Below, in pieces: positions 2,108 to 16,195 of a stretch of 16,195 nt of DNA. Numbering within the stretch: position 1 is the stretch's first letter; each line of letters begins with the position of its first letter. The position numbers and the translations under genes were made by a program. The notes below the pieces were generated by a model. It was given only the letters and a program-made list of their open reading frames with translations. It was not told where the DNA came from and made no database searches. The stretch lies in IMG/VR virus record IMGVR_UViG_2537561991_000020, one strand, 5' to 3'. This stretch comes from a virus (taxonomy: Duplodnaviria > Heunggongvirae > Uroviricota > Caudoviricetes).

Positions 2108-2327
2108 TGTTCAGCGCCTCAAAATCGGGTTCAGCAGAAACCAGTTCAGATGTTTTTGGCATCGTTGTCAGACCGTGTGGAATATCCCTGCGGAGAACTA
2201 TGGGTTCGTTTTTAGGGCCGATTACAAATGGGATGCCGTGCAGTCTTAACTGGTGTTGCTGTTTTGTGTATCGCTCGTATTTCGTGATCTCTTTAATCTC
2301 TGCTGGAGATAGAGTTAATTCGTACAT
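2085..2327 (-). CDS. xis: Putative excisionase (80 aa), start chosen at the internal ATG at 2327
   Basis: Small ORF (MYELTLSPAEIKEITKYERY...) immediately upstream of int and overlapping its start by 23 nt, as xis/int do in lambda. The first residues resemble lambda Xis (MYLTLQEW...). Assignment is by position and size only. Confidence 0.45.
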   Translation of the reverse strand: MYELTLSPAEIKEITKYERYTKQQHQLRLHGIPFVIGPKNEPIVLRRDIPHGLTTMPKTSELVSAEPDFEALNNGKTKKK

Positions 2328-2394
2328 GTGGTCACGTGCCTTTACAGCATGACCGCCGCCACTATAGCTGGTGGGCGGCGATATGGGTTGAACA

Positions 2395-4866
2395 TTAAAA
2401 ATCAGCCTGACTCGGGAGCAGTTTTTGCCAGATGGCTGAAACGTATTTCGCCTGGTAACGTGCATCGTTCAGAGCGTTATGGCGTTCACCTTCGAATGGA
2501 ATAGTCGTTCTTGCGTCGAAATCCATCACCAGTCCCAGAGCAACCATCGTTCTTACATCGCGATCATTGGTGTAACGCCACGGGCAGGGGATCCCCTGCC
2601 GTTCATATGAACGGCGTAAAATCACGTTGTCGAAAGTTGCACCGTTACCCCAGACCTGAACAAAAAATTCACCGGAGTTTTCGTCGATAAATTCCCGCAA
2701 TTGTAACAGTGCATCATCTAACGGGATTTCATCGGTCATAATGGCAGATTGCGCTTCGCGTGATTGCTTAAGCCACCATTTAATGGTGTCCCGATCAATG
2801 ACTCCGCCAGCAGTTTCCAGATCAATAGTCTTACTAAATTCCGGTCCCATATCTCCGGTTTGCGGATCGAAAAATATTGCACCTATTGAGATAATCGGGG
2901 CATCAGGATTTTTTCCCATGGTTTCAAGGTCGATCATTAGATGGTCACACGTCCTGCTGGTGGATGTGATAACGTGATGACCGTTCACCGTAATTAAGGG
3001 ATCTGCCGTCTCGCCAGTTTCACTATCGCTGGCGTGATCCTGAGCGCTACCAGCATTCTCCTTGTGTGGATGTTCAGCGCCTTCCATTTCCTCCGGATCA
3101 TTTTCCTGAACTTCAACCTGATTCTCTTCATCGAATGTTTCCTGGTATGTTGCGTCACCCATCACCGCGCCACAATCATGGCAGTTGCCACCACCGCTTT
3201 GACCGCAGGCGGTGCAGACTTTTTCCGGTTCCTGTTGCGCTACTGGCTCAGGTTGTTTCGTTTCTGGCTCGTTTTGTTGCGTATTTGGGCTGTTTTGTTC
3301 CGCTTTCTGGTCGTTCTGTTCCGATTCTTGCTGGTTCTGGTTTACAGAATCGCGGGTTTCCATCCCCTTTACCCATTTCGGATCATTCGGGTCGCTAATC
3401 CCTGCAACAAATTCTCCGCGAGAGGCAGCAAGCAACTTATCGGCGTCAGGCTGGCTGATATTGGCTGCCTGCATAATTTTGTTTACTTCGTCAGCGGTAA
3501 CTTTTACCGGCTCTGGTTGTGCGGTCGTGTCAGATGCACCAGTATTTTGTTGTGAACCTGAGTATGTACTGTTTTTGCGGGCGAAATATTCTTCTTTCGT
3601 GATTTCAGTAGCCCCGGCAGCCAGTGCCTTATCCAGACCAGAAAGTTTGTTTGCGCGACCGTATTTTTCGCCATCCTTGTCGGTGAAGAGGAAGTAGAAC
3701 GGCCCCTCACGCTCTACAGATGGTTCGACTTCCACTTTGCATTCGGTTTTTTCGTTGTCCGGAATTGCCGTTTCCACTGCATCAGTTTCTGGTACTGACG
3801 ACGAGAGAGTATCAGTTGCGCTCTGATTTGTTCCTTCATCTTCAAACACGCCCTTTGTAGTCAGGTATTCAGTAATGTATTTGTTCAGTGCCACAGGGTC
3901 TTTGTGAATGTCGATCGGACGTTCACGGACAAGGCCAAAAATAGTCTGGCGGTCGTAGCGAAGGGCATCAGGCTGTTTGCGCATTGATGTCGAGATACGC
4001 TTCCAGTCTTCGCGGTCGTTGTCGATAACTTCATTTTTTGCCCAGCGATGGATGCTGCCGTCAATGTTTCCGGCATCCACATCACCAGGCCAGAGAGCGT
4101 AGGCCAGTTCGTCATCCAGTGTTTTCCATGTCTGCTTGTATTCGCGATGAATGGCAGCAATGACCAGGCTGATTTTTCCTGTTGAATTTTCAGTGTGCTG
4201 TTGATTGACTCTGGCGCGGGCGAGATCAACAACAGACGTGTATTTTCCGGTTTCCTTGCGTTCACCTTCGCGACGTTTTTTCCAGATGCGCATCTCTGCC
4301 TGAATTTCGGGCCATTTGGCACCAGGCTTACATTTATGCTTAACCCACCCGATGGCATGCAGCTTAAGCTCCGGATACATGGCGTTAACTTCTGGCATTT
4401 TCATCAACGCTTCAACGATATGTCCGTCGAATGTTGCCATGTCTTCCTGCAACAATTCCTGTGCGCTAATAACCATATCAACGGTGATGTTTTCACATGT
4501 GTCGAACTTAACCATGACAGCGTTCTGTACTTCAGGGGCCAGCTTGTCAAAAGTGACGTTCATCGGATCGGATTCAGTCTCAACCGGGACAAAGGAAGCA
4601 GACTCCTCATCCCAGCGGTTTTCCTGCATATATTCAGCATCCCAGGAATCGAGGGCAGGGCGGGGTATGCCGGGTTTATCCTCACAGACAATAAATTTAT
4701 AAGCGCAGTCCTGAGCTGCAGGGAATTGCTCCAGAAATTGCCAATGAAATTTTGCGCGTGCGCGACGCTCATCACCAGCTTCAATGGCAGTGGCCACCGC
4801 AACAGCGCTATCTTCTTTTATGGCCTGTTCATCAGGAATAGCAGCGCAAATAAAGACTTTACTCAT
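2395..4866 (-). CDS. Phage exonuclease-family protein (exodeoxyribonuclease VIII-like) with a C-terminal DnaQ-like DEDDh 3'-5' exonuclease domain
   Basis: 823-aa ORF with a GAGGT ribosome-binding site. The C-terminal region has the motifs MIDLETMG (Exo I, D/E) and [13 protein letters not shown] (Exo III, H...D). A central Q/E/N-rich low-complexity segment and a CxxC-x7-CxxC zinc ribbon ([16 protein letters not shown]) are present. It occupies the exo position between xis and the dicB operon. Confidence 0.75.
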
Positions 4867-4958
4867 TTTGTTTTACCTCATTACAGATTTAAGGGTGAAC
4901 AAATCCCTGCCATTGCTGGCATATAAGAATGAAACCGGATGTTTATTACGGAACTGTT

Positions 4959-5150
4959 TTAAAGACCTGCCGGGATTTCGTTATTATCCTGGTGAATAAC
5001 TTTATCGACCGGGTAACAGTTACCGGGAATTTTCTGTTCGGTTGCTGCAGTCACACACTCCTGCATTGTCCTGTGAACACTGACTGCAATATCAACTGGC
5101 TCTCCGGAAACAAGAAAAACTGTCAGAACAAGTGCAAATGCTGTATTCAT
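4959..5150 (-). CDS. ydfD: YdfD-like small lysis protein (63 aa)
   Basis: The internal-start product MNTAFALVLTVFLVSGEPVDIAVSVHRTMQECVTAATEQKIPGNCYPVDKVIHQDNNEIPAGL closely matches K-12 Qin YdfD as I recall it. Its ATG overlaps the dicB stop (ATGA). Confidence 0.7.
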   Translation of the reverse strand: MNTAFALVLTVFLVSGEPVDIAVSVHRTMQECVTAATEQKIPGNCYPVDKVIHQDNNEIPAGL

Positions 5151-5335
5151 TGCCAGCATCCTTTTTGTATCGGACGTAAACGGGCCAGCATTGAAAGAAT
5201 GCATATTTTATTTAATAGCTCCCGTTCGTGTTTTCTCTTGTTAATGGCATCTTCAGTAAATACAGGGTTACTGATAGTGACACCAATTTCAAAACAACCT
5301 TCAGACGTATTAACGTTTGGTAATAACGTTTCCAT
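5147..5335 (-). CDS. dicB: Cell division inhibitor DicB (62 aa)
   Basis: METLLPNVNTSEGCFEIGVTISNPVFTEDAINKRKHERELLNKICILSMLARLRPIQKGCWQ is near-identical to K-12 DicB as I recall it. ATG at 5335 (plus-strand cat 5333-5335) with a GAGGA ribosome-binding site; the longer track ORF (to 5440) is rejected. Confidence 0.85.
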   Translation of the reverse strand: METLLPNVNTSEGCFEIGVTISNPVFTEDAINKRKHERELLNKICILSMLARLRPIQKGCWQ

Positions 5336-5504
5336 TATCGCGTCCTCAACAATGAATTTTGTGATGTGGTGCCTGGTGCCTCCAGGTGACGTTAACCAGT
5401 TAACAATTAACGCCGGATACAGAGAATCCACCCATAACACTGTTTTTGGTTTTAACTGTTCCGCGTGCGCTCAGCCGCATTCACCGCATCACAAAATTCA
5501 CTTT

Positions 5505-5562
5505 AAAAACGGCGGCAGAGCAGTCACGGAGTAAAACTGATACCGCCAAACGTCACCAGAAA
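5505..5562 (-). ncRNA. dicF: DicF small regulatory RNA (ftsZ-targeting antisense sRNA)
   Basis: The minus strand reads tttctggtgacgtttggcggtatcagttttactccgtgactgctctgccgcc followed by a U-run, essentially the DicF sequence as I recall it. It lies between ydfC and dicB as in the K-12 dicB operon. Confidence 0.75.
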
Positions 5563-5902
5563 ATTGATAACAGAGGGCGTTGCAGCGGGGTTGTCGCTTA
5601 AGCGTATGGTCAACCTGACAACCCGGTGTCCTCAACGGGGAAGGAATAACCCCGCCATACTTACCGCCGCGCCATTTCGCGGAGTGCCACAACCGGAAGC
5701 GCACGGTCGACGAAAATTTAACGACAGGCTATCTATGAACCAGCTACCTCGCCGTGCGCTTTCGCGTTATGGTCTGACTTTTCATGGAAATATCCTTTCA
5801 GTAAACTGTCAGTGCCGGATGCTCACCCATGTCCGGCGCACGCACTCCACCTCACCCGTGGAGAACTCCTTAATTACCAACCTTAGCTTCGTTGGTTAGC
5901 TA

Positions 5903-6121
5903 TTAACGCGGGTATGTAATCATTCTGGCAATGCTTAATGCCGCTGCTTTTTCCAGCCTGGTGATATCCTGCTCCAGAGCGGACAGATTTTCAGCCTGCT
6001 TAGCCCTGGCTTCATTGGCCCATTTCAGATCCTGCGCTGCATTAATTTTCTGGCGCATCCACTCATAAAGTTCATCATCGGTATAGTCTGGCGAGATGAT
6101 GACGGGTTCTCGTTTCTGCAT
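5903..6121 (-). CDS. ydfC: YdfC-like prophage protein (72 aa)
   Basis: 72-aa ORF (MQKREPVIISPDYTDDELYEWMRQKINAAQDLKWANEARAKQ...) in the ydfA-ydfB-ydfC-dicF-dicB order. Size and synteny match K-12 ydfC; I cannot recall its sequence with confidence. Confidence 0.6.
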   Translation of the reverse strand: MQKREPVIISPDYTDDELYEWMRQKINAAQDLKWANEARAKQAENLSALEQDITRLEKAAALSIARMITYPR

Positions 6122-6150
6122 ACTGATTCCTCGCGGTGCTGCTTCGCTTA

Positions 6151-6279
6151 TCAGCCGTTAGATTTTGCCGAGCTGGAAAGCGCCTGTTTAAACTCACTGA
6201 AGCTGAGAGCTTCTTCGCCTTCGGCAAGGCCTTCGAAGTATTCTTCGTAAGCCTTTTCCATGATTGTGTCGAAATCCAT
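6151..6279 (-). CDS. ydfB: YdfB-like small protein (42 aa); not in the ORF track because it is under 60 aa
   Basis: Hand-translated minus-strand ORF: ATG at 6279 (plus-strand cat 6277-6279), product MDFDTIMEKAYEEYFEGLAEGEEALSFSEFKQALSSSQKSNG, stop at 6151-6153. A GGTGA ribosome-binding site precedes it. It sits between ydfA and ydfC. Confidence 0.6.
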   Translation of the reverse strand: MDFDTIMEKAYEEYFEGLAEGEEALSFSEFKQALSSSAKSNG

Positions 6280-6280
6280 A

Positions 6281-6436
6281 TCACTCACCTGAGTTTCTTT
6301 CCAGCCAGCGACGGGCACCATTTTCGGTTTTAAACGTTTTGCTTCTGGTATACGTCATCGCGGTAAACGTGCCGTCCTGGTTGGGAAACACGCCGCATAC
6401 CAGAGATTCGTTGTTGCCAAGATCGATAGTATTCAT
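6281..6436 (-). CDS. ydfA: YdfA-like small protein (51 aa)
   Basis: Internal-start product MNTIDLGNNESLVCGVFPNQDGTFTAMTYTRSKTFKTENGARRWLERNSGE. First gene of the dicB operon downstream of the operator/promoter region, consistent with K-12 ydfA. Confidence 0.65.
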   Translation of the reverse strand: MNTIDLGNNESLVCGVFPNQDGTFTAMTYTRSKTFKTENGARRWLERNSGE

Positions 6437-6511
6437 GCTGACCTCATTTCCCCTTAACGCCGGGGTAGCGGAACTGTTTGCTGAGAACACCGTGCGGTGT
6501 CTTGGTGGAGA

Positions 6512-6542
6512 TTAATTTAGAATAACCTAACAAATGTAGCAA
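6512..6542 (-). promoter_or_regulatory. Candidate sigma70 promoter of the ydfABC-dicF-dicB-ydfD operon (dicBp-like)
   Basis: On the minus strand: -35 TTGCTA (plus 6537-6542), 17-nt spacer, -10 TAAATT (plus 6512-6517). The spacer overlaps an operator-like half palindrome. Confidence 0.4.
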
Positions 6543-6567
6543 GTATTTTTGTTAGATTGGTCTAACA
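6515..6567. promoter_or_regulatory. Operator pair between dicA and ydfA: two 18-bp TGTTAG-N6-CTAACA-type palindromes
   Basis: Perfect inverted repeat tgttagattggtctaaca at 6550-6567. Imperfect copy tttagaataacctaaca at 6516-6532 overlaps the candidate promoter. The same motif recurs in the dicA-dicC intergenic region. Confidence 0.5.
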
Positions 6568-6603
6568 AAAAGAGTGAGGGAATCTAAGTATCTGAAAGGA
6601 GTG

Positions 6604-7011
6604 TTATTTTATTGATTTGTTTTTACGTGCTTTAAGCATTTCTTCGAAGAGTTTATTGAAATTCTCTACTCTTGCGCGCATTTCAGACAGTAAGGCTTCC
6701 TGCTCGGAGGAGGGAAGAGCATCGAATAATTCGATCAATTCTTTGTGGCTGGGAGTTAACTCGGTTTCCACATGAAGTTCTTGTGCTGGCACTGGTGCCT
6801 TGTCTTCGTCACCAAACATTAGCCATGTAGGCGAGCACTTCAGCGCATCAGCTAAAGCAAATAACCGCTTCCCGACCGGTTGGGTTTCGTCTCTTTCCCA
6901 TTGTGAAATTGTGACGTGAGCTACCCCAGCGAGGCGTGCAGCTTCTCGTTGTGTTAGGCGTAATTCTTTTCGTCGTGCCAGAACTCGCTGGCCTAGGGTT
7001 CTTGTATCCAT
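6604..7011 (-). CDS. dicA: DicA-like HTH repressor (cI-like, XRE family)
   Basis: 135-aa ORF. HTH region LTQREAARLAGVAHVTISQWERDETQP and C-terminus ...EMRARVENFNKLFEEMLKARKNK closely resemble K-12 DicA as I recall it. Divergent from dicC. Confidence 0.85.
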   Translation of the reverse strand: MDTRTLGQRVLARRKELRLTQREAARLAGVAHVTISQWERDETQPVGKRLFALADALKCSPTWLMFGDEDKAPVPAQELHVETELTPSHKELIELFDALPSSEQEALLSEMRARVENFNKLFEEMLKARKNKSIK

Positions 7012-7078
7012 AGTTAGGTAATTCTAATTTTTCTTGACTTAGGTATCCCGTGCACATTACTGTTAGGAATATCTAACA
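7012..7078. promoter_or_regulatory. dicA-dicC divergent control region with two TGTTAG-N6-CTAACA-type operators and a candidate dicC -35
   Basis: Perfect palindrome tgttaggaatatctaaca at 7061-7078; imperfect agttaggtaattctaatt at 7012-7029; TTGACT at 7035-7040 as a candidate -35 for dicC with no convincing -10. Confidence 0.5.
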
Positions 7079-7091
7079 AGAGGGGGCTTTG

Positions 7092-7319
7092 ATGCTTAAA
7101 GTTGACGCAATTACTTTTTTTGGCAGCAAAACAAAACTTGCCAATGCCGCAGGAGTGAAACTGGCAAGTGTTGCTGCATGGGGGGAACTGGTTCCTGAAG
7201 GTCGCGCGATGCGCCTGCAAGAGGCATCCGGCGGGGAACTTCAGTACGACCCCAAAGTTTATGACGAATATCGTAAGGCAAAGCGGGCGGGGCGGTTGAA
7301 CAATGAAAATCACCCCTGA
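7092..7319 (+). CDS. dicC: DicC-like Cro-type regulator (75 aa)
   Basis: MLKVDAITFFGSKTKLANAAGVKLASVAAWGELVPEGRAMRLQEASGGELQYDPKVYDEYRKAKRAGRLNNENHP matches K-12 DicC as I recall it. ATG at 7092 is preferred over the TTG at 7089 because the AGGGGG ribosome-binding site (7081-7086) is better spaced. Confidence 0.8.
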   Translation: MLKVDAITFFGSKTKLANAAGVKLASVAAWGELVPEGRAMRLQEASGGELQYDPKVYDEYRKAKRAGRLNNENHP

Positions 7320-7824
7320 ACAGGTTTGTGAGGCTCTGGATGCCTGGGTATGCCGACCAGGAATGACACAGGAGCAGGCGACGATATTAATCACGGAAGC
7401 ATTCTGGGCTCTGAAAGAACGCCCGAACATCGATGTTCAACGCGTCACGTTTAATGATGGCGAGGTTGATCAACGGGCGTTGGGCGTTAACCGGGTGAAG
7501 ATATTCGAACGCTGGAAAGCTATCGACACCAGGGATAAGCGGGAAAAATTCACGGCGCTGATTCCGGCAATTATGGAGGCTATCCGGATCAGCGATTTCA
7601 GGTTGTATTGTGAAATTACTGACGGAAAAAGCATTACGTACATGATCGCCGGGTTAAACAAAGAATATGGTGATGTGGTGGAGTCCGGGCTGCTTTTTGC
7701 GGATCCATCTGTTGTGGAACGTGAGACTGACGAGCTTATAGAAAAAGCTATTGCTTTCAAGCATGCGTATCGTCAGCAATACCAACAAAAAGCTGGATGG
7801 AATTATGAGCCTTCTTTTTGCTGA
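7303..7824 (+). CDS. YdaT-like protein in the cII position
   Basis: 173-aa ORF directly downstream of the cro-like gene with a 17-nt overlap. Weak motif resemblance to Rac YdaT (MKI...; REKFTALIPAIMEAI versus REKIQKLIPAILAIL). Confidence 0.5.
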   Translation: MKITPEQVCEALDAWVCRPGMTQEQATILITEAFWALKERPNIDVQRVTFNDGEVDQRALGVNRVKIFERWKAIDTRDKREKFTALIPAIMEAIRISDFRLYCEITDGKSITYMIAGLNKEYGDVVESGLLFADPSVVERETDELIEKAIAFKHAYRQQYQQKAGWNYEPSFC

Positions 7825-8770
7825 ACGCCCACTGGTTATAAACACACAGCTTGCGATGAAGATTGGCTTAAATGAAGCCATTGTGTTGCAGCAGTTGCAT
7901 TACTGGTTGAGAGATACCAGTTCCGGTATGGAATGTGACGGGGTTCGCTGGATTTATAACACAACAGAACAATGGCTGGAACAGTTCCCGTTCTGGTCAG
8001 AGTCAACGTTAAAACGCGCATTTGCAAGTCTGAAAACGCTGGGGCTTTTGCGTTGCGAAAAGCTCAACAAATCAAAGCGTGATATGACTAATTTTTACAC
8101 GATTAATTACGAGAGTGAGCTTTTAGATGGTGGCAAAGTGAGCGAATCCATCAGGTCAAAATGCGCCGCTCCATCGGGTCAAAATGACACGATGGAAGAG
8201 GTCAAAATGGCACGCTCCATTGGTTCAAAACGACCCAATGTCATCGGGTCAAAATGGCCTGATGATCTTACAGAGAATACAACAGAGATTACTACAGAGA
8301 ATAAAAACACTTCTCGTCCGGAAGCTTCGCAACCGGACCCGCAGACGGCTGAACAGGATTTTTTAACCCGACACCCTGACGCGGTTGTGTTCAGTGCGAA
8401 AAAACGCCAGTGGGGAAGTCAGGAAGATTTGGCGTGCGCACAGTGGATCTGGGGACGAATCGTGAGTCTTTACGAGCAGGCTGCCAGCGATGATGGCGAG
8501 ATCACGCGACCGAAAGAACCAAACTGGACCGCATGGGCCAATGACGTGCGCACAATGCGGATGCTGGATGGCAGAAGCCACAGACAAATTTGCGAAATGT
8601 TTGGTCGGGTACAGCGAGATCCATTCTGGGTAAAAAACATCATGAGCCCGTCAAAGCTTCGCGAAAAATGGGACGACCTGGTCATCCGCCTGGGGCGTTC
8701 ACCTGTACAGTGTTGTGTGAATCATATTTCTGAACCGGATACCGAAATTCCGCCTGGTTTCAGGGGATAA
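7805..8770 (+). CDS. Putative phage replication initiator (O-like), with internal iterons
   Basis: Long ORF after the cro/cII-like genes. The N-terminal region (ERPLVINTQLAMKIGLNEAIVLQQLHYWL) looks like a helix-turn-helix replisome-organizer domain. The gene contains direct repeats (iterons) as lambda O contains ori. Start is uncertain: ATG 7805 preferred, 7751 and 7763 possible. Confidence 0.6.
   Translation: MSLLFAERPLVINTQLAMKIGLNEAIVLQQLHYWLRDTSSGMECDGVRWIYNTTEQWLEQFPFWSESTLKRAFASLKTLGLLRCEKLNKSKRDMTNFYTINYESELLDGGKVSESIRSKCAAPSGQNDTMEEVKMARSIGSKRPNVIGSKWPDDLTENTTEITTENKNTSRPEASQPDPQTAEQDFLTRHPDAVVFSAKKRQWGSQEDLACAQWIWGRIVSLYEQAASDDGEITRPKEPNWTAWANDVRTMRMLDGRSHRQICEMFGRVQRDPFWVKNIMSPSKLREKWDDLVIRLGRSPVQCCVNHISEPDTEIPPGFRG
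8154..8256. repeat. Iteron array (candidate origin of replication): five ggtcaaaatg-type repeats at about 23-bp spacing
   Basis: ggtcaaaatg at 8154-8163, 8177-8186, 8200-8209 and 8247-8256, plus variant ggttcaaaacg at 8222-8232. Spacings are 23, 23, 22 and 25 bp. An AT-rich tract with three acagaga repeats follows (about 8257-8310). Confidence 0.55.
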
Positions 8771-8810
8771 GTGGTGATTTTAGGGCATAAAGTAATGTTC
8801 AGGAGGACTT

Positions 8811-9218
8811 ATGGCAAAAGTATTTACACAGGAAGAGCGGGAAAAAATTAAAGGACAGGTGGTGGAACTCGTGCGCCAGAGCGGTCGTGAGACGTTACGG
8901 CAACTGGAAGCTAAAACAGGTGCGACAAGATATCTGATGAGCGTTCTTGCCAGAGAGCTGGTTGCCAGTGGTGATGTATATCACTCTGGCTATGGGGTGT
9001 TCCCGTCAGAACGGGCTCGTAAGGACTGGCAAAACGCCCGCAAAAAACTCTCGAGGGCAAAGGTGAAGAAACCTGTTGTGGTTGATCCGGGCCTTATCTG
9101 GACATTACCCGACGGAGAAATACGCCGCTACGACAGGCGTATGAACATAATCTGTCGCGAGTGCCGGAAGAGCGAAGTTATGCAGCGTGTATTGGCGTTC
9201 TATCAGGGATATGCCTAG
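8811..9218 (+). CDS. Hypothetical protein (135 aa), possible HTH-containing
   Basis: ORF with a good ribosome-binding site (caggagga, then ATG at 8811). No confident homology recalled. Confidence 0.55.
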   Translation: MAKVFTQEEREKIKGQVVELVRQSGRETLRQLEAKTGATRYLMSVLARELVASGDVYHSGYGVFPSERARKDWQNARKKLSRAKVKKPVVVDPGLIWTLPDGEIRRYDRRMNIICRECRKSEVMQRVLAFYQGYA

Positions 9219-9264
9219 AATTGTCACAGGTAATGAAATTAAAGAGTATTGGTTCGGATATGAA

Positions 9265-9294
9265 TTGACATTTTCGCGGCACAGAGCTAAAAAT
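9265..9294 (+). promoter_or_regulatory. Candidate sigma70 promoter in the AT-rich leader upstream of the SIR2-like gene
   Basis: TTGACA at 9265-9270, 17-nt spacer, taaaaat at 9288-9294. It would give a roughly 290-nt leader to the ATG at 9587. Confidence 0.3.
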
Positions 9295-9586
9295 AGCCTA
9301 CTTGTTGGTTTTGTGTGAAAAGCAGACATTTTGAGGCTCAGGATTTGTTATCAAATAAGACCAATACTTATCTATATTAATACACATTAAATACTGTGCA
9401 ATACATTATTGCATTTTATTAGATAAGCGATATTTAGGGAAAAGAAAAGTCATAGAAAACAGGCCGCTATTTGTTGTTGGATTTTATAGGCTATATCTAG
9501 ATTATCTTGCCACTGCGGTCTCTGTTTACCTAACAGCTTGGGCTTCTTTGCATGCAAGTTTGTAATAACAAGAGTAATCAAACGGA

Positions 9587-10618
9587 ATGTCTATTAATCC
9601 TAAACTTAAGCGTATCGCGCGACGCTATCCAGCGTTATTCCAATATGAGTCCCCCTATATGGCAAGAAAATTAATAATATTCGGCAACGGTCTCGGTATG
9701 GCTTTAGATCCTGCTCACTTCTCCTTAGACAGAGCGTTGGAAGAAATTTGGCATCGCCCCAATTTTTTAAAAGATATCCACAAGCAACTTATCGAGCGTT
9801 GTCTTCAGCGGCAAGGTCCACCAGAAGGAGAACATGAGTTGGATACCCTTCACCAGGCTGTCACATATTGTAAAGCTCTTGCTCAAATTGGAGAGGGGAA
9901 CGTGCATTGGCTTACTGAAGATGGACTAAACTTCCCCAAAATTACCGCCACTTATATTCACAAAGTTGCAACCAGGTTGCATAATTACGATAAAGGTTTG
10001 CCACAAAGATTCGAAAATGCGCTTGTGGAGTTTGTAAAGAACACACACTCACATATCGCGACATTAAACTATGACAAATTATTATACAATTCATTCATAG
10101 ATAATGATATATTCAACGGGTATGATGGGGTTTTAGTTGATGGGATGCTAAGCCACGGATTTTCCTCTGCAGCGCTCGAACGGAAATACAATCGTAGGTT
10201 TGGTTATTATTTGCACTTGCATGGTTCACCACTATTTATTAATCAGCATGAAAATGTTTTAAAACTTTCACGCTCACAACTTACTCTTGACATAGATGAA
10301 CCTAGTGAGCATATAGTGTTAACTCATATAAAAAGAAAACCGTCAGTTATAGCAGCATCTAATGTTCTTTCTACGTACTGGGATTATTTGCAGTTTGCAT
10401 TATTTGAATCAGAAGAAATAATATTGTTTGGTTACTCTGGTCTCGATATTCACCTTAACCTGCTTATTCGACCTTACCTAACCTCTAAGCCTTTAAGAGT
10501 AATTGAGTGGAGCGGTGCTGGTGAACAAAACGCTCGTGAGATATATTGGAAAAACCAGTTGAGACGGGAAGTTACTGTAATTAGGTTGGATAACATCACT
10601 GATTTTATTGATTGGTAG
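9587..10618 (+). CDS. Standalone SIR2-like (SIR2_2-type) putative NAD+-hydrolase; candidate anti-phage defence cargo gene
   Basis: 343-aa ORF in a visibly AT-rich block. Four ordered motifs parallel Thoeris ThsA-type SIR2 domains: IIFGNGLGMALD (Gly-rich loop), TLNYDKLL (conserved Asn), YYLHLHGSP (catalytic His), IILFGYSGLD. Start codon is uncertain because the ribosome-binding site at 9587 is weak. Confidence 0.6.
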   Translation: MSINPKLKRIARRYPALFQYESPYMARKLIIFGNGLGMALDPAHFSLDRALEEIWHRPNFLKDIHKQLIERCLQRQGPPEGEHELDTLHQAVTYCKALAQIGEGNVHWLTEDGLNFPKITATYIHKVATRLHNYDKGLPQRFENALVEFVKNTHSHIATLNYDKLLYNSFIDNDIFNGYDGVLVDGMLSHGFSSAALERKYNRRFGYYLHLHGSPLFINQHENVLKLSRSQLTLDIDEPSEHIVLTHIKRKPSVIAASNVLSTYWDYLQFALFESEEIILFGYSGLDIHLNLLIRPYLTSKPLRVIEWSGAGEQNAREIYWKNQLRREVTVIRLDNITDFIDW

Positions 10619-10688
10619 CGCAATGCGAAGTTAAAGAGGCAGCCTCATATTTATCAGAGCTGGTGTACGTCCAATACAGGAGGTTATC

Positions 10689-10778
10689 GTGCTGGTTCTC
10701 AAATGCGCGCTGGCTATTGCGGCTGTAGTGGCAATTTATTGTCTTGCTATTGTTCTTATGGATCGCCTTTCTGATTGA
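10689..10778 (+). CDS. Putative 29-aa hydrophobic membrane peptide
   Basis: GTG at 10689 preceded by a consensus AGGAGG (10678-10683) with 5-nt spacing. Product VLVLKCALAIAAVVAIYCLAIVLMDRLSD is one predicted transmembrane helix; stop TGA at 10776-10778. Not in the ORF track because it is under 60 aa. Confidence 0.35.
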   Translation: MLVLKCALAIAAVVAIYCLAIVLMDRLSD

Positions 10779-10989
10779 TTTTATATTGGCGAGGTGACGG
10801 GAGTTAAGTAGAATTGCTGCGGGTGCTTGAGGCTGTCTGCCTCGGGCATGCCACCGTAAGGCAGACAGAGAAAAGCCCCAGTTAACATTACGCGTCCTGC
10901 AAGACGCTTAACATTAATCTGAGGCCCAATCTATGCTTCACAAACGTAGGTTAGCCTCTTACGCGCCGAAAGGCAAGGAGAAGCAGGCT

Positions 10990-11145
10990 ATGAAGCAGCA
11001 AAAGGCGATGTTAATCGCCCTGATCGTCATCTGTTTAACCGTCATAGTGACGGCACTGGTAACGAGGAAAGACCTCTGCGAGGTACGAATCCGAACCGGC
11101 CAGACGGAGGTCGCTGTCTTCACAGCTTACGAACCTGAGGAGTAA
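10990..11145 (+). CDS. hokD: Hok-family type I toxin HokD/RelF (51 aa)
   Basis: MKQQKAMLIALIVICLTVIVTALVTRKDLCEVRIRTGQTEVAVFTAYEPEE matches K-12 HokD as I recall it. Internal ATG at 10990; stem-loops typical of hok mRNA leaders lie upstream (10833-10868, 10882-10916). Confidence 0.85.
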   Translation: MKQQKAMLIALIVICLTVIVTALVTRKDLCEVRIRTGQTEVAVFTAYEPEE

Positions 11146-11213
11146 GAGACCAGGCGGGGGAGAAATCCCTCGCCACCGCTGATGTGTCAGGCATCCTCAA
11201 CGCACCCGCACTT

Positions 11214-11245
11214 AACCCGCTTCGGCGGGTTTTTGTTTTTATTTT
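11214..11245 (+). terminator. Rho-independent terminator after hokD
   Basis: Stem cccgc (11216-11220), loop ttcg, stem gcggg (11225-11229), followed by tttttgtttttatttt. Confidence 0.6.
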
Positions 11246-11361
11246 CAACGCATTTGAAGTTCTGGACGGTGTCGGAATAGAATCAAAAATACTTAAGTAG
11301 CGCGCAGGGATAAGAGGGATGGTCCCTTAAAGGGGAGAGCTAATTATCCGGAAGGATTCTG

Positions 11362-11613
11362 ATGATGAACATCGAAGAACTGCGTAAAATTTTTTGTGAA
11401 GATGGCCTCTATGCTGTGTGCGTTGAAAATGGAAATATTGTTAGTCATTACCGCATTGTGTGTTTGCGAAAGAATGGGGCTGCGTTAATTAATTTTGTGG
11501 ATGGTCGAGTGACAGACGGATTTATCTTGCGCGAAGGTGAGTTTGTCACTTCATTACAGGCACTGAAAGAGATCGGAATAAAAGCTGGCTTTTCTGCTTT
11601 TTCAGAAGAATAA
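11362..11613 (+). CDS. Hypothetical prophage protein (83 aa; Rem-like by size and position)
   Basis: ORF with ribosome-binding site ggaagga. Follows hokD as rem does in K-12 Qin, and K-12 Rem is also 83 aa as I recall; the sequence itself was not verified. Confidence 0.5.
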   Translation: MMNIEELRKIFCEDGLYAVCVENGNIVSHYRIVCLRKNGAALINFVDGRVTDGFILREGEFVTSLQALKEIGIKAGFSAFSEE

Positions 11614-11679
11614 ACTCATCTACAATCTTGCGCGGGGCTGAACTCCCGCTGAGTAACACCGTGCCGCCGGAGGAAACCG

Positions 11680-11958
11680 ATGGCACGCAACGCAAAATAT
11701 TACAATCATGATAATTCGACCGTTCTTGCCCACACGCACGAGCGGTATTCTCACGCATTTAAGTCAGACTGGTACCAGCATCCCCCATGCACTGAAGAAC
11801 AGGCCGAATGGCTCATTCAGTGTTACCGCAGGCGCGGATGCGAGGTTAAAAAAGCCCTTAGCCTCGACTACCGTCACTGGATAATCTCCGTCGGGCTTCC
11901 TTACTCCGAACGCCCACCGCGTCTGTCCCGCACATTCCAGCAACGCATCTGGAGGTAA
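11680..11958 (+). CDS. Hypothetical protein (92 aa)
   Basis: ORF whose stop abuts the GTG start of the following gene, suggesting translational coupling. No homology recalled. Confidence 0.5.
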   Translation: MARNAKYYNHDNSTVLAHTHERYSHAFKSDWYQHPPCTEEQAEWLIQCYRRRGCEVKKALSLDYRHWIISVGLPYSERPPRLSRTFQQRIWR

Positions 11959-11959
11959 C

Positions 11960-13009
11960 GTGCGGGTATTACTTCGACCTGTTCTGGTACCGGAACTCGG
12001 GCTGGTGGTCCTTAAGCCCGGTCGCGAATCACTGCCGGTTTTTCATTGCGGCAGGGTGCTGGTGGAGCCGGAACCGAAAAGCATGCGCGGTCTGCCGTCC
12101 GGAGTCGTCCCTGCCGTTCGCCAGCCGCTGGCGGAGGATAAATCATTACTGCCATTTTTCAGCGATGAGCGTGTGATTCGTGCTGCTGGCGGCGCTGGCG
12201 CACTGTCTGACTGGCTCCTGCGTCATGTCAAATCCTGCCAGTGGCCTCATGGTGACTACCATCACAGTGAAACCGTCATACATCGTTATGGTACCGGCGC
12301 AATGGTGTTGTGCTGGCACTGCGACAACCAGCTGCGCGACCAGACCTCCGAATCACTCGGGCAACTTGCTCACCAAAACCTGTCTGCATGGATGATTGAC
12401 GTCATACGCCATGCAATGAATGGCTCGCAGGAACGGGAATTATCGCTGGCTGAATTATCCTGGTGGGCGATCCGCAATCAGGTGGCGGACGCGCTACCGG
12501 AAGCGGTATTACGTCGTTCGCTGGGGTTGCGTGCGGAAAAAATCCGCTCAATGTACCGTGAAAGCGACATCGTACCGGGAGAGCAGACCGCCACCAGCAT
12601 ACTGAAACAGCGCACAAAAAATCTTGCGCCGCTGCCTCACGCCCACCAGCAACAGAACCCGCCACAGGAAAAGACGGTGGTCAGCATTGCTGTTGATCCG
12701 GAGTCTCCGGAATCTTTAATGAAGCGACCTAAACGTCGCCGTTGGGTAAATGAGAAATATACGCGCTGGGTAAAGACACAGCCGTGTGCGTGTTGTGGTA
12801 AGCCAGCCGACGATCCCCATCACCTGATTGGTCATGGTCAGGGCGGAATAGGGACAAAAGCCCACGATATTTTCACGCTACCGTTGTGCCGGGAGCATCA
12901 CAACGAACTTCATGCTGATCCGCTGGCATTTGAAGAAAAGCATGGTTCCCAGATTGATTTAATTTTTCGTTTTCTTGATCGCGCCTTTGCAACCGGCGTG
13001 CTCGGGTAA
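11960..13009 (+). CDS. DUF968-family protein (YdfU-like) with a C-terminal Cys/His-rich putative HNH-like motif
   Basis: 349-aa ORF with GTG start and a GGAGG ribosome-binding site (11951-11955). C-terminus CACCGKPADDPHHLIGHGQGGIGTKAHDIFTLPLCREHHNELH. Position between the rem-like gene and rusA matches ydfU in K-12 Qin. Confidence 0.65.
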   Translation: MRVLLRPVLVPELGLVVLKPGRESLPVFHCGRVLVEPEPKSMRGLPSGVVPAVRQPLAEDKSLLPFFSDERVIRAAGGAGALSDWLLRHVKSCQWPHGDYHHSETVIHRYGTGAMVLCWHCDNQLRDQTSESLGQLAHQNLSAWMIDVIRHAMNGSQERELSLAELSWWAIRNQVADALPEAVLRRSLGLRAEKIRSMYRESDIVPGEQTATSILKQRTKNLAPLPHAHQQQNPPQEKTVVSIAVDPESPESLMKRPKRRRWVNEKYTRWVKTQPCACCGKPADDPHHLIGHGQGGIGTKAHDIFTLPLCREHHNELHADPLAFEEKHGSQIDLIFRFLDRAFATGVLG

Positions 13010-13021
13010 AAGAGGTTACTG

Positions 13022-13381
13022 ATGCGTATAGAGTTTGTTTTGCCTTACCCGCCGACGGTGAACACCTACTGGCGACGTCGTGGCAGCACATATTTTGTGT
13101 CAAAAGCCGGTGAGCGTTATCGCCGGGATGTGGCACTTATTGTTCGCCAGCAGCGGCTGAAATTAAACCTGTCCGGAAGGCTGGCGATAAAGATTATTGC
13201 AGAGCCACCGGATAAGCGCCGCCGCGACCTGGACAATATCCTGAAGGCACCACTGGATGCGCTTACGCATGCCGGACTACTTATAGACGACGAGCAGTTT
13301 GATGAAATCAATATTGTGCGCGGTCAGCTCGTTTCTGGTGGGCGGCTGGGCGTGAAGATTTACAAAATTGAAAGTGAGTGA
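13022..13381 (+). CDS. rusA: RusA-family Holliday junction resolvase
   Basis: 119-aa ORF. YPPTVNTYWRRRG...AEPPDKRRRDLDNILKAPLDALTHAGLLIDDEQ parallels DLP12 RusA (...[23 protein letters not shown]...). Typical ninR-region location upstream of Q. Confidence 0.8.
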   Translation: MRIEFVLPYPPTVNTYWRRRGSTYFVSKAGERYRRDVALIVRQQRLKLNLSGRLAIKIIAEPPDKRRRDLDNILKAPLDALTHAGLLIDDEQFDEINIVRGQLVSGGRLGVKIYKIESE

Positions 13382-13944
13382 GCATAAATATGATATACCC
13401 GGAAATTACAGGCAAAAGCGGTGAGCATTTACGCCTGAAAACGCTGGAAAGTGTCTGGATCCAGGGGAAACTGCGTATGTGGGGGCGTTGGTCGTATATT
13501 GGCGACGGTAAGACGGGAAATATGTTCAACCAATTACTGACCTCTAAAAAGCTGACAAAAACGGCAATTAACGAGGCGCTCCGGAGGATGAAAAAAGCGG
13601 GTCTGGACAAACCTGAACTTGAGGCTTTTTTGCGGGATATGATCAACGGCAATCAAAAAAGCTGGCTGGCACATTGTACCGATTCAGAGGCGTTAATAAT
13701 CGACAGGGTTATTGGTGAAGTACTGGCAGGTTATCCCGGGCTGCTCAATGTTCTGAGTCAGCGTTATGTGGGGCGGGGGATGACTAAGCGCAAAATGGCT
13801 GAACTGCTGAATGATGCACATCCGGAATGGAGTTTAAGAACCTGTGAAAGACGCATTGAGCATTGGCTAAAGGTGGCAGAATTTATTTTGTACAAACCAA
13901 TGGTTATGGCTTTTGGTATAGAGAAAAAAGTTATTGCTTTTTGA
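13378..13944 (+). CDS. Putative late-gene antiterminator Q (QuuD-like family)
   Basis: Positioned after rusA and directly before a strong intrinsic terminator. Scattered motif similarity to QuuD-type Q proteins as I recall them (LESVW..W, LLTSKK, RRMKKAG, HCTDSEA). Start is ambiguous between GTG 13378 and ATG 13390. Confidence 0.55.
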   Translation: MSINMIYPEITGKSGEHLRLKTLESVWIQGKLRMWGRWSYIGDGKTGNMFNQLLTSKKLTKTAINEALRRMKKAGLDKPELEAFLRDMINGNQKSWLAHCTDSEALIIDRVIGEVLAGYPGLLNVLSQRYVGRGMTKRKMAELLNDAHPEWSLRTCERRIEHWLKVAEFILYKPMVMAFGIEKKVIAF

Positions 13945-14021
13945 CGTAAAAACTGCTTTAATTCCGGTAAGCTTCGCAAAGCTGTACCGCGAGGCGAATA
14001 GCAGACATGGACATTTGAAAG

Positions 14022-14046
14022 AGCCCGCTTTTTGCGGGTTTTTTTA
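14022..14046 (+). terminator. Rho-independent terminator about 80 nt downstream of Q (tR'-like)
   Basis: Stem cccgc (14024-14028), loop ttttt, stem gcggg (14034-14038), then a 7-T run. Confidence 0.6.
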
Positions 14047-14366
14047 TGACTGAAAAACGGCACGGGGCGTTAAACGCGCTGGTGGTTGCTAATACCGGTC
14101 TTTCAACTTGCTGGCTTTTTCGACAAGAGTTATTGGTATGTCACGTTAACCGGAAAATGGAAAAAGGCATGCTAAAACAGCAGGATATGACCGAAACCGC
14201 CAGAGTGGTGTTTAATGAATTAAGCGTCACCGAACCGGCGACCGCCGGGGAAATTGCGCAGAACACTTATCTTTCACGCGAACGCTGCCAGTTAATACTG
14301 ACCCAGCTTGTTATGGCGGGTCTGGCAGATTATCAGTTCGGTTGTTACAGACGCCTTCCTCAGTGA
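14046..14366 (+). CDS. Hypothetical small protein, possibly winged-helix-like; start uncertain
   Basis: 106-aa ORF whose first ATG overlaps the terminator T-run. Internal ATGs around 14157-14172 are alternative starts. Its stop lies within a terminator hairpin. Confidence 0.35.
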   Translation: MTEKRHGALNALVVANTGLSTCWLFRQELLVCHVNRKMEKGMLKQQDMTETARVVFNELSVTEPATAGEIAQNTYLSRERCQLILTQLVMAGLADYQFGCYRRLPQ

Positions 14367-14380
14367 AGGCTTTTTTATTT
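14353..14380 (+). terminator. Rho-independent terminator
   Basis: Stem gccttc (14353-14358), loop ctcagt, stem gaaggc (14365-14370), followed by ttttttattt. Confidence 0.45.
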
Positions 14381-14516
14381 GTGGTAATGGGCGGCTGGTG
14401 GGTGTTAGCGGCACCTGCCAGCCATCTGCTCATGCGTTGGGGTCACAAGCAAACCTCAGGCCCATCTGCTTTGCGCAAAAGCGGTATGAGCCTATCAGAG
14501 AAGTGCTTATTGATCT

Positions 14517-15575
14517 ATGGCTAATACTGTAAAAATATCCAGTTGTGAGTTAATCAACGCTGATTGCCTGGAATTTATCCAGACCTTACCGGAAAACTCT
14601 GTCGATCTGATAGTCACAGACCCGCCATACTTTAAAGTGAAGCCCGAGGGCTGGGATAACCAGTGGAAGGGCGACGATGATTACCTGAAGTGGCTGGACC
14701 AGTGTCTGGCGCAGTTCTGGCGGGTGCTGAAACCTGCCGGAAGTCTTTACCTGTTCTGTGGTCATCGCCTGGCATCTGATATCGAAATCATGATGCGTGA
14801 ACGCTTCAGTGTGCTGAACCATATTATCTGGGCGAAGCCGTCCGGACGCTGGAACGGATGCAACAAGGAAAGCCTGCGGGCGTATTTCCCCGCCACAGAG
14901 CGCATTCTGTTCGCGGAACATTATCAGGGGCCGTATCGTCCGAAAGATGCCGGGTATGCGGCGAAGGGCAGTGCACTGAAACAGCATGTGATGGCCCCGC
15001 TGATTTCTTACTTTCGTGATGCGCGCGCGGCCCTGGGGATAACGGCAAAACAGATTGCAGATGCCACAGGAAAGAAAAACATGGTGTCGCACTGGTTCAG
15101 TGCCAGTCAGTGGCAGCTACCGAACGAAAGCGATTATCTGAAATTACAGTCGCTGTTTGCCCGGGTGGCAGAAGAGAAACATCAGCGGGGAGAACTGGAA
15201 AAGTCCCATTACCAACTGGTCAGCACATACAGTGAGCTGAACCGGCAGTATATGGAACTGCTGAGTGAATATAAGCATCTGCGGCGGTATTTTGGCGTGA
15301 CGGTGCAGGTGCCGTATACCGATGTGTGGACGCATAAACCGGTGCAGTTCTATCCCGGGAAACATCCGTGCGAAAAACCGGCAGAAATGCTGCAGCAGAT
15401 AATCAGCGCTAGCAGTCGTCCGGGTGACCTGATTGCAGATTTTTTCATGGGGTCGGGTTCGACAGTGAAAGCGGCACTGGCGCTCGGGCGTCGTGCAATT
15501 GGCGTTGAGCTGGAGACTGAACGTTTTGAGCAGACGGTTCGGGAAGTACAGGATTTAGTCAGCCAGAACGGATGA
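14517..15575 (+). CDS. Orphan DNA methyltransferase (N6-adenine/N4-cytosine type; DPPY motif before the FxGxG AdoMet motif)
   Basis: 352-aa ORF with DPPY catalytic motif (VTDPPYF) near the N-terminus and AdoMet-binding motif DFFMGSGST near the C-terminus. No adjacent restriction endonuclease gene. Confidence 0.8.
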   Translation: MANTVKISSCELINADCLEFIQTLPENSVDLIVTDPPYFKVKPEGWDNQWKGDDDYLKWLDQCLAQFWRVLKPAGSLYLFCGHRLASDIEIMMRERFSVLNHIIWAKPSGRWNGCNKESLRAYFPATERILFAEHYQGPYRPKDAGYAAKGSALKQHVMAPLISYFRDARAALGITAKQIADATGKKNMVSHWFSASQWQLPNESDYLKLQSLFARVAEEKHQRGELEKSHYQLVSTYSELNRQYMELLSEYKHLRRYFGVTVQVPYTDVWTHKPVQFYPGKHPCEKPAEMLQQIISASSRPGDLIADFFMGSGSTVKAALALGRRAIGVELETERFEQTVREVQDLVSQNG

Positions 15576-15615
15576 TATTGAAGAATTAATTACGCGTCGT
15601 TATTATGCGGCTCCC

Positions 15616-15691
15616 GGCCCTTTAGCTCAGTGGTGAGAGCGAGCGACTCATAATCGCCAGGTCGCTGGTTCAAATCCAGCAAGGGCCACCA
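15616..15691 (+). tRNA. tRNA with CAU anticodon (tRNA-Ile2, ileZ-like, or tRNA-Met)
   Basis: Cloverleaf folded by hand: acceptor ggccctt/aagggcc, anticodon loop ctCATaa, T-loop ggttcaaatcc, discriminator A and encoded CCA. Confidence 0.85.
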
Positions 15692-15698
15692 TCACATA

Positions 15699-15775
15699 CC
15701 GCTATTAGCTCATCAGGAAAGAGCGCCAGCCTTCGAAGCTGGCTGCGCGGGGTTCAAGTCCCCGATGGCGGTCCA
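15699..15775 (+). tRNA. tRNA-Arg (anticodon UCG), argN-like
   Basis: Acceptor ccgctat/atggcgg (one G-U pair), anticodon stem ccagc/gctgg with loop cTTCGaa (U33, anticodon UCG), T-arm cgggg-ttcaagt-ccccg, encoded CCA. Confidence 0.75.
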
Positions 15776-15788
15776 TTATCTGCATCAT

Positions 15789-15865
15789 GCGTTGTTAGCT
15801 CAGCCGGACAGAGCAATTGCCTTCTAAGCAATCGGTCACTGGTTCGAATCCAGTACAACGCGCCA
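15789..15865 (+). tRNA. tRNA-Arg (anticodon UCU), argO-like
   Basis: Acceptor gcgttgt/acaacgc, anticodon loop cTTCTaa (anticodon UCU), T-loop ggttcgaatcc, encoded CCA. Confidence 0.85.
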
Positions 15866-15880
15866 CACTTATTTTCCCTG

Positions 15881-15904
15881 GCTCGCTTTTGCGGGCTTTT
15901 TTTT
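15881..15904 (+). terminator. Rho-independent terminator after the tRNA cluster
   Basis: Stem gctcgc/gcgggc (one G-U pair), loop tttt, followed by an 8-T run. Confidence 0.45.
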
Positions 15905-15992
15905 AAATGTCTCACAATTCAGACGGTTGACAGTTGTCTGTTTTGCGGGGAGTTTGTTAAAAGAAACTGGCATGGTGAATCCCCCTGTGCGG

Positions 15993-16195
15993 CTGTCTCT
16001 TGATCAGATCTCCTGATCAAGAGACTTCATCACCAGGTAACCCTCAACCATATCCTGAAGTCTGAACCAGCCATCCCACATGACTACCCAACCGGGGCGA
16101 CCGGTGCGTTTGCTGTCATGCCATCGCCCCAGTTTCGCCAGTTTCAGACAGGCCCATTTCAGTGTCGGCATCTGTGACGGAAGCGGTTTTCCTTC
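15993..16195 (-). mobile_element. End of an IS4-family (IS50/Tn5-like) insertion sequence; the element continues beyond the window
   Basis: The 19-mer ctgtctcttgatcagatct (15993-16011) matches the IS50 inside end as I recall it, including two GATC sites. The adjacent minus-strand ORF encodes a C-terminus homologous to Tn5 transposase. Confidence 0.6.
16004..16195 (-). CDS. IS4-family (Tn5 Tnp-like) transposase, C-terminal 63 codons; 5' part outside the window
   Basis: Hand translation of the minus strand gives ...LKWACLKLAKLGRWHDSKRTGRPGWVVMWDGWFRLQDMVEGYLVMKSLDQEI*, which parallels the Tn5 Tnp C-terminus (...LQWAYMAIARLGGFMDSKRTGIASWGALWEGWEALQSKLDGF...). The stop codon lies inside the terminal repeat, as in IS50. 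Confidence 0.6.
   Translation of the reverse strand, partial: EGKPLPSQMPTLKWACLKLAKLGRWHDSKRTGRPGWVVMWDGWFRLQDMVEGYLVMKSLDQEI

Follow-up and report, generated by a model that had tools for sequence, protein, structure and literature searches.

Downstream of its late antiterminator gene, the lambdoid prophage analysed here carries three tRNA genes, followed by an insertion sequence. In Stx2a, Stx2c and Stx2d phages the gene layout at the corresponding place is q, three tRNAs, stx and nanS-p (PMC7366253). The first-pass annotation of this 16,195-bp stretch of DNA (the window) raised the possibility that the insertion sequence had displaced or truncated toxin genes or other virulence cargo once located behind the tRNAs. 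Is this a disrupted toxin locus? We consider it very probable that the trio is the standard ileZ-argN-argO operon known from lambdoid prophages of E. coli, that the prophage carrying it here, beside yccA, is free of toxin genes, that the neighbouring ISEc13 lies in spacer DNA and has replaced no cargo, and that the tRNAs act by codon supplementation. The features on which this reading is based are listed in Table 1.

Table 1. Features from the Q gene to the end of the window (window coordinates; a dot marks a feature without strand).
Feature	Position	Strand	Evidence
Q-type late antiterminator gene, 184 aa	13390-13944	+	Pfam DUF1133 349 bits; Phage_antitermQ 33.2 bits (cutoff 26)
tR'-like intrinsic terminator hairpin, ~80 nt after Q	14016-14050	+	-18.0 kcal/mol, z = -6.7, then T-run
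Small ORF, 65 aa	14169-14366	+	Hypothetical protein in relatives; Pfam TrmB 18.8 bits, below cutoff (weak TrmB-like HTH)
Terminator-like hairpin after small ORF	14353-14378	+	Terminator scan and fold
N6/N4 DNA methyltransferase (methylase) gene	14517-15575	+	Pfam N6_N4_Mtase 150 bits
Element resembling a sigma-70 promoter, TTGAAG-N17-TATTAT, with its end 9 nt upstream of ileZ	15578-15606	+	Sequence match
ileZ, tRNA-Ile2, anticodon CAU	15616-15691	+	ARAGORN; Rfam RF00005 72.5 bits, E 1.6e-14
argN, tRNA-Arg, anticodon UCG	15699-15775	+	ARAGORN; Rfam RF00005 55.8 bits, E 6.6e-10
argO, tRNA-Arg, anticodon UCU	15789-15865	+	ARAGORN; Rfam RF00005 70.1 bits, E 7.6e-14
Intrinsic terminator ending the tRNA unit	15880-15904	+	7 pairs + T8 (terminator scan); -11.4 kcal/mol
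stx2AB insertion point of Stx2a phages, unoccupied here	15904-15907	.	Alignment of Stx2_EH2201 to IS-free allele
Conserved non-coding spacer; last 8 bp (15985-15992), CTGTGCGG, are the ISEc13 target	15905-15992	+	Empty site in twin
Left end of ISEc13 (IS4 family), transposase 3' end	15993-16195	-	Identity to E2348/69 ISEc13; stops at window end

Over the full length of the window, ARAGORN reported three tRNA genes and no more, all on the plus strand, and the Rfam matches, each above the gathering score of 29 for RF00005, agree with these calls. The three anticodons and their coordinates, as read in the first-pass annotation, are thus confirmed. All three genes encode the 3' CCA, and the full cloverleaf is the minimum-free-energy fold for the UCG tRNA (argN) only. 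The CAU tRNA had been assigned as a probable tRNA-Ile2 reading AUA, and this assignment is well supported: the gene is 89.5% identical to K-12 ileX, while its identity to the elongator genes metT and metU is 67.5% and to the initiator gene metZ 59.7%. Three base pairs (C4-G69, C5-G68, C29-G41) together with the discriminator base A73 distinguish tRNA-Ile2 from tRNA-Met for TilS and IleRS. At all of them the CAU tRNA is the same as ileX, whereas metT has U4-A69, A5-U68 and U29-A41. In most of the genomes listed, PGAP also labels the gene as tRNA-Ile. Judged by its sequence, the CAU tRNA is of the Ile2 type and not a tRNA-Met. The argO gene is 100% identical to its copy in the Stx2a phage Stx2_EH2201 and 72.7% identical to K-12 argU. 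Two details of the tRNAs should be mentioned. In ileZ, an A27-C43 mismatch atop the anticodon stem is flagged in the Rfam alignment, and the discriminator base of argN is U, while argQ and argU of K-12 have A and G, respectively.

As noted in the first-pass annotation, the trio is located downstream of Q and a methylase gene, and both of these are recognized by Pfam (Table 1). In the prophage that is 100% identical to the window, the RefSeq name of the Q protein is DUF1133 family protein. The same methylase gene is found between Q and the tRNAs in Stx2a phages and in phiP27. We considered whether the methylase corresponds to the rRNA methyltransferase of phage PA8 (PMC10810198), but rejected this candidate, since the PA8 enzyme is an MT-A70 protein and is encoded elsewhere in that phage.

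The window as a whole represents a lambdoid prophage integrated beside yccA, with the integrase gene at 1088-2107. From position 9000 to 15992 it is 100% identical to the prophages of E. coli O111:H2 12A, FDAARGOS_1059 and strain 602687, which are also located at yccA and agree with it in gene order from the integrase gene up to and including the trio. These three prophages lack ISEc13 and their target site is empty, in contrast to the window prophage, which harbours the element; below they are referred to as IS-free twins. Several other genes of the window deserve mention. In the early-right region there is a gene for a SIR2-family protein of 343 aa (9587-10618), possibly an accessory gene of the defence type. 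The sok antitoxin RNA (Rfam 116 bits; 10821-10995, plus strand) lies beside a hokD toxin ORF, and the sRNA DicF (Rfam 72.5 bits; 5510-5561, minus strand) beside dicB. Both combinations are typical of Qin/Rac-type prophages.

The relation to the Stx phages is close, but it is limited to a module. The segment 14034-15903, which comprises the small ORF, the methylase gene, the trio and its terminator, is 92-94% identical to many Stx2a and Stx2d phages and about 89% identical to phiP27. The identity is 93.8% to AP012536 and AP012537, where the genes carry the names ileZ, argN and argO. Together with the identical argO of Stx2_EH2201, this supports the equation of the trio with the cluster of that name. 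In Stx2a_1447, Stx2_EH2201 and phiP27, the cluster has the same anticodons in the same order and the same position between Q and the lysis genes, and there, too, it is preceded by the methylase gene and the small ORF and followed by the terminator. For the window prophage, the position between Q and the lysis cassette was established with lysis genes read from the IS-free twins. The Q genes are of different type: the Q protein of Stx2_EH2201 has 126 aa, while that of the window is the DUF1133 protein listed in Table 1. The other difference concerns the toxin genes, which follow the tRNA terminator in Stx2a phages, whereas their insertion point in the window is empty.

The trio was found in 2578 of the 5426 complete E. 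coli genomes (coverage of at least 80%), in up to 13 places per genome, and is thus no marker of a toxin phage. Many genomes contain two of the three tRNAs only. Among 33 further phage loci carrying an ileZ of this type, none has stx downstream of ileZ. Among the papers searched, none treated ileZ, argN and argO together or 933W in connection with rare codons. The trio is an already known, textbook feature of lambdoid prophages, present in about half of the complete E. coli genomes, and its occurrence here has little weight as a discovery. The value of the analysis lies in a correction: a toxin locus cannot be deduced from a tRNA trio arranged like that of Stx phages, and the stx site in this prophage is empty and intact.

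We then turn to the insertion sequence. It starts at position 15993 with CTGTCTCTTGATCAGATC, 88 bp past the stx point and the tRNA terminator, and all 203 bp contained in the window are identical to ISEc13 of strain E2348/69 (203/203). Thus, the first-pass statement that the next element is an IS4-family insertion proved correct. Its terminal repeat is that of ISEc13, the element in the window beginning with the CTGTCTCTTGATCAG end; there is a weak Pfam match to Dimer_Tnp_Tn5, and the RefSeq name is IS4-like element ISEc13 family transposase. The complete ISEc13 with its 8-bp target duplication was observed in E2348/69 and in other copies, while the window covers the first 203 bp. In the IS-free twin L001 the empty site reads tcccc-CTGTGCGG-agggg, and at the E2348/69 junction CTGTGCGG is present on both sides of ISEc13.

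In the E2348/69 prophage (NC_011601.1, about 1.4427-1.4445 Mb), ISEc13 is inserted at the same nucleotide and in the same orientation as in the window. To its right follow the same spacer, an esterase gene of the NanS-p type (DUF1737/SASA/DUF6645) and the genes for holin, lysozyme and Rz. The spacer and the IS end are 100% identical to the window, but the tRNA region is only about 94-96% identical, and the E2348/69 prophage lacks the methylase gene, its Q differs from that of the window, and its middle tRNA gene appears decayed. The gene in question is argN (L002 9098-9172), whose anticodon loop reads cuuuaag; in this prophage PGAP calls tRNA-Ile and a single tRNA-Arg. Among the complete E. 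coli genomes, none contained the 100%-identical prophage together with the IS, and all ten of the assemblies shown that encode exactly this methylase have the empty site. Queries containing the ISEc13 end matched 27-31 places per chromosome of the E2348/69 lineage. The end of the window at 16195 is probably an assembly break inside the repeated IS and not a biological boundary.

Based on the IS-free twins and E2348/69, the right-hand junction in the source strain can be predicted. ISEc13 probably transposed by cut-and-paste into the 8 bp CTGTGCGG within the motif CCCCY-N8-RGGGG, past the tRNA terminator and the stx point. The right end of the IS would abut CTGTGCGGAGGGGCAATC; in all, about 1.55 kb of ISEc13 would precede CTGTGCGGAGGGGCAATCAGCGAG, behind which the NanS-p-type esterase and lysis genes are expected. 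Alternatively, ISEc13 and its flank could have been acquired by homologous recombination with a prophage of the E2348/69 type, without a fresh insertion. The combination of 100% identity in the spacer (15905-15992) and in the 203 bp of the IS with about 94-96% identity in the tRNA region upstream is the pattern expected of a recombination breakpoint. However, the IS-free twins share this spacer at 100% identity too, so that an imported flank is not needed, and the site is a demonstrated preferred target of ISEc13 that was hit independently next to diverged flanks (L152, UTI89) and in the opposite orientation (L170). Recombination is therefore a possible origin of the IS, which we rate as doubtful in comparison to transposition into the site.

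The target preference of ISEc13 was deduced from six independent copies on plasmids and chromosomes and 20 copies on viral contigs, which gave 32 distinct half-sites (loci L002, L025-L030 and L151-L170). At positions -13 to -10 from the IS end, C was found in 72-78% and a pyrimidine in 91-100% of the half-sites, and at position -9 there was C or T in 94%. The resulting consensus is CCCCY-N8-RGGGG with a duplication of 8 bp, and the phage spacer holds a good match to it. ISEc13 sits in this 8-bp target in the window and likewise in E2348/69, L152, UTI89 and L170. In L152 (position 11253) the prophage is 89% identical to the window; in UTI89 (L004 5091) the flank is 78% identical and the IS end about 97%; and in L170 (about 6476, minus strand) the element has the opposite orientation. 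We also considered a single ancestral insertion inherited by all carriers. It was rejected, because in UTI89 the IS end is far less diverged than the flank and because the orientation is reversed in L170. Diverged flanks and opposite orientation at the same 8 bp point to repeated independent hits on a preferred target. The ISEc13 copies of UTI89 and pMAR2 have no duplication and are involved in rearrangements.

ISEc13 resembles IS50/Tn5, IS10 and IS231A: its ends are IS50-like (CTGTCTCTTGATCAG... and CTGTCTCTTATACAC...), the transposase C-terminus is of the Tn5 type, and the target is symmetric. It differs from Tn5 and IS10 in that the 8-bp duplication and CCCCY-N8-RGGGG do not correspond to the Tn5 or IS10 consensus. 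The target preference GGG(N)5CCC of IS231A is a precedent for symmetric targets. No paper with ISEc13 in its title or abstract was found, and the eight papers which name the element do so once each. We tentatively propose that this preference of ISEc13 is strong and under-appreciated, and that the motif in the phage spacer is a landing pad used again and again: independent insertions, some in one orientation and some in the other, would have occurred in at least three to five diverged prophage lineages. As the late promoter is on one side of this site and the lysis and structural genes are on the other, insertions here might dampen late-gene expression and might thus help to ground lambdoid prophages. 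This proposal as a whole is a speculative one. In practice, the consensus and the reuse of the phage site provide a small reusable aid for annotation, namely for explaining assembly breaks at this place and for predicting where the IS lands.

What may be the use of the tRNAs themselves? Codon usage was compared with a baseline of 14,353 codons from neighbouring host genes in 50 kb of host DNA of strain 602687; the early genes were taken from window positions 1088-15575 and the late genes from L022 16168-41806. In the early genes, ATA was found at 12.0 per 1000 codons vs 3.1 in the host (OR 3.9, p = 3.5e-10), AGA at 8.5 vs 1.7 (OR 4.9) and AGG at 5.3 vs 0.7 (OR 7.6). The late genes are enriched in AGA (OR 2.8), AGG (OR 7.8) and CGG (OR 2.5), while the enrichment of ATA in them is not significant (OR 1.5, p = 0.09). 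For CGA, which is the codon cognate to argN, the enrichment is marginal in the early genes (OR 1.65, p = 0.04) and absent from the late genes (OR 0.94). For comparison, stx2AB contains 36.8 ATA and 14.7 AGA codons per 1000. Thus, the case for supplementation is strong only for AGA and AGG and for ATA in early genes. In terms of the tRNAs, there is good support for supplementation by ileZ and argO and weak support in the case of argN, with a presumed benefit to translation. The weak support for argN fits its decay in E2348/69 and the frequent versions with two tRNAs, which suggest that selection on at least one member of the trio is weak. Some further features of codon usage were observed. ATA, AGA and CGA are enriched more in early than in late genes, although the tRNAs sit in the late transcription unit, while the enrichment of AGG is about equal in both sets. 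The integrase gene and the SIR2-family gene are especially rich in rare codons, the latter with 11 ATA in 319 codons.

The trio may also have a promoter of its own. The element upstream of ileZ (Table 1) is the only promoter-like match in window positions 13300-16195. Of 33 phage loci, 29 retain the pattern TTGNNN-N17-TATTAT-N9, and the other four have TTGATT-N17-TATTAT-N10. The DNA preceding the element belongs to at least five unrelated contexts, among them the 3' end of the methylase gene, a terminator and DNA close to Q. Conservation in spite of such differences upstream speaks for a promoter dedicated to the trio, alongside transcripts that extend from the late promoter, and we predict sigma-70-dependent activity for it. 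According to our model, the tRNAs would be transcribed from this promoter and, after induction, additionally by Q-modified polymerase that has started at the late promoter and reads through, and would be matured by host enzymes. C34 of the ileZ product would be converted to lysidine by host TilS, enabling it to read AUA; the argO tRNA (UCU) would read AGA and AGG, and the argN tRNA (UCG) CGA and CGG. In this way, the trio would add capacity for host-rare codons that are over-used in phage genes and in phage-borne cargo.

However, the trio could also be a hitch-hiking remnant, moved along with the methylase-tRNA module by lambdoid recombination and of no measurable benefit in this prophage. The homology to the Stx2a and Stx2d phages and to phiP27 begins at 14034 and ends at 15903, exactly on terminators, as is expected for a shuffled cassette. 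The apparent decay of argN in E2348/69, the common two-tRNA versions and the lack of CGA over-use in the prophage point in the same direction. On the other hand, ileZ and argO are highly conserved, argO being 100% identical even between phages with about 93% identity elsewhere; the promoter-like element is kept in every upstream context examined; and prophage genes use AGA, AGG and ATA significantly more often than host genes do. We therefore regard mere hitch-hiking as unlikely and prefer codon supplementation. As an aside, both module boundaries fall inside intrinsic-terminator hairpins or their T-runs, which points to terminators as the joints at which phage modules recombine.

Another function of phage tRNAs should be considered. 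Some of them rescue translation when defence systems or colicins deplete host tRNAs, as colicin D does with tRNA-Arg. The trio could accordingly consist mainly of replacements or decoys against nucleases of the host or of competitors that cut anticodon loops. Two of the three tRNAs are indeed Arg isoacceptors, and to our knowledge the anticodon UCG of argN is absent from E. coli K-12. The match of the anticodons to the over-used codons ATA, AGA and AGG is, however, explained more simply by supplementation, so that we see little room for a decoy function as the main one.

Finally, we return to the question of lost cargo. Stx2_EH2201 aligns to the IS-free allele in two blocks, one over the window-equivalent positions 15616-15903 and the other starting at 15908; stx2AB occupies the interval, and the spacer block equivalent to 15908-16127 is also kept by Stx phages, downstream of stx2B. 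The insertion point of the toxin genes is thus defined to a few nucleotides, and in the window it is intact. In the IS-free twins and the assemblies (three complete genomes and ten assemblies, some overlapping), the trio is followed by the spacer, the NanS-p-type esterase gene and the genes for holin, lysozyme and Rz, and none of them contains cargo between the trio and the esterase gene. The IS-free prophages that are 100% identical to the window have no stx, and stxA and stxB are not present directly after the tRNA terminator of the window. We predict that the window prophage is toxin-free.

That the IS replaced or truncated toxin genes or other cargo is hardly credible, even though the region after the trio varies among phages (stx2AB in Stx phages, ORFs resembling IraM, lipoproteins or methyltransferases elsewhere), the right side of the IS falls beyond the window end, and a decayed ISEc13-like copy in UTI89, at the same site and without duplication, abuts unrelated island DNA and indicates that rearrangements are possible: the stx point lies upstream of the IS and is intact, the window up to the IS is 100% identical to prophages with neither IS nor cargo, and in E2348/69, where the junction is identical, a perfect duplication of 8 bp is followed by the same spacer, esterase and lysis genes. 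The first-pass suggestion of displaced cargo was not borne out. What lies beyond the site, read by proxy from the IS-free twins and E2348/69, is an ordinary lysis cassette with no disrupted cargo, the outcome that had been named beforehand as contradicting it. The description of the locus as a hotspot for virulence cargo is correct insofar as the stretch after the trio varies among relatives; in this prophage, the stx point is intact and empty. Altogether, the locus probably represents ordinary, known biology, and the IS a benign insertion into spacer DNA.

Some minor observations concern the region around the stx point and the ISEc13 target. In IS-free genomes, PGAP annotates an incomplete 42-codon pseudogene of a hypothetical protein which spans the ISEc13 target on the minus strand (L001 9461-9586, equivalent to window positions 15960 to about 16085), and its translation (VPLHGAGCLPVNSV...) has no evident identity. 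Relatives among the IMG/VR loci (L118-L150) carry differing small inserts at the stx position, 290-1700 nt after ileZ, with an IraM-like ORF of 111 aa on the minus strand, a lipoprotein-like ORF of 142 aa and a methyltransferase-like ORF of 311 aa. In UTI89 (L004, NC_007946.1, about 1.1205-1.1222 Mb), a phage tRNA remnant, consisting of an argN-like tRNA with a UCU anticodon and a second tRNA-like sequence, is present together with the ISEc13-like copy, which is frameshifted. The remnant is located in an island between iroBC and a gene for a TonB-dependent receptor, and this junction is common to about 120 other genomes.
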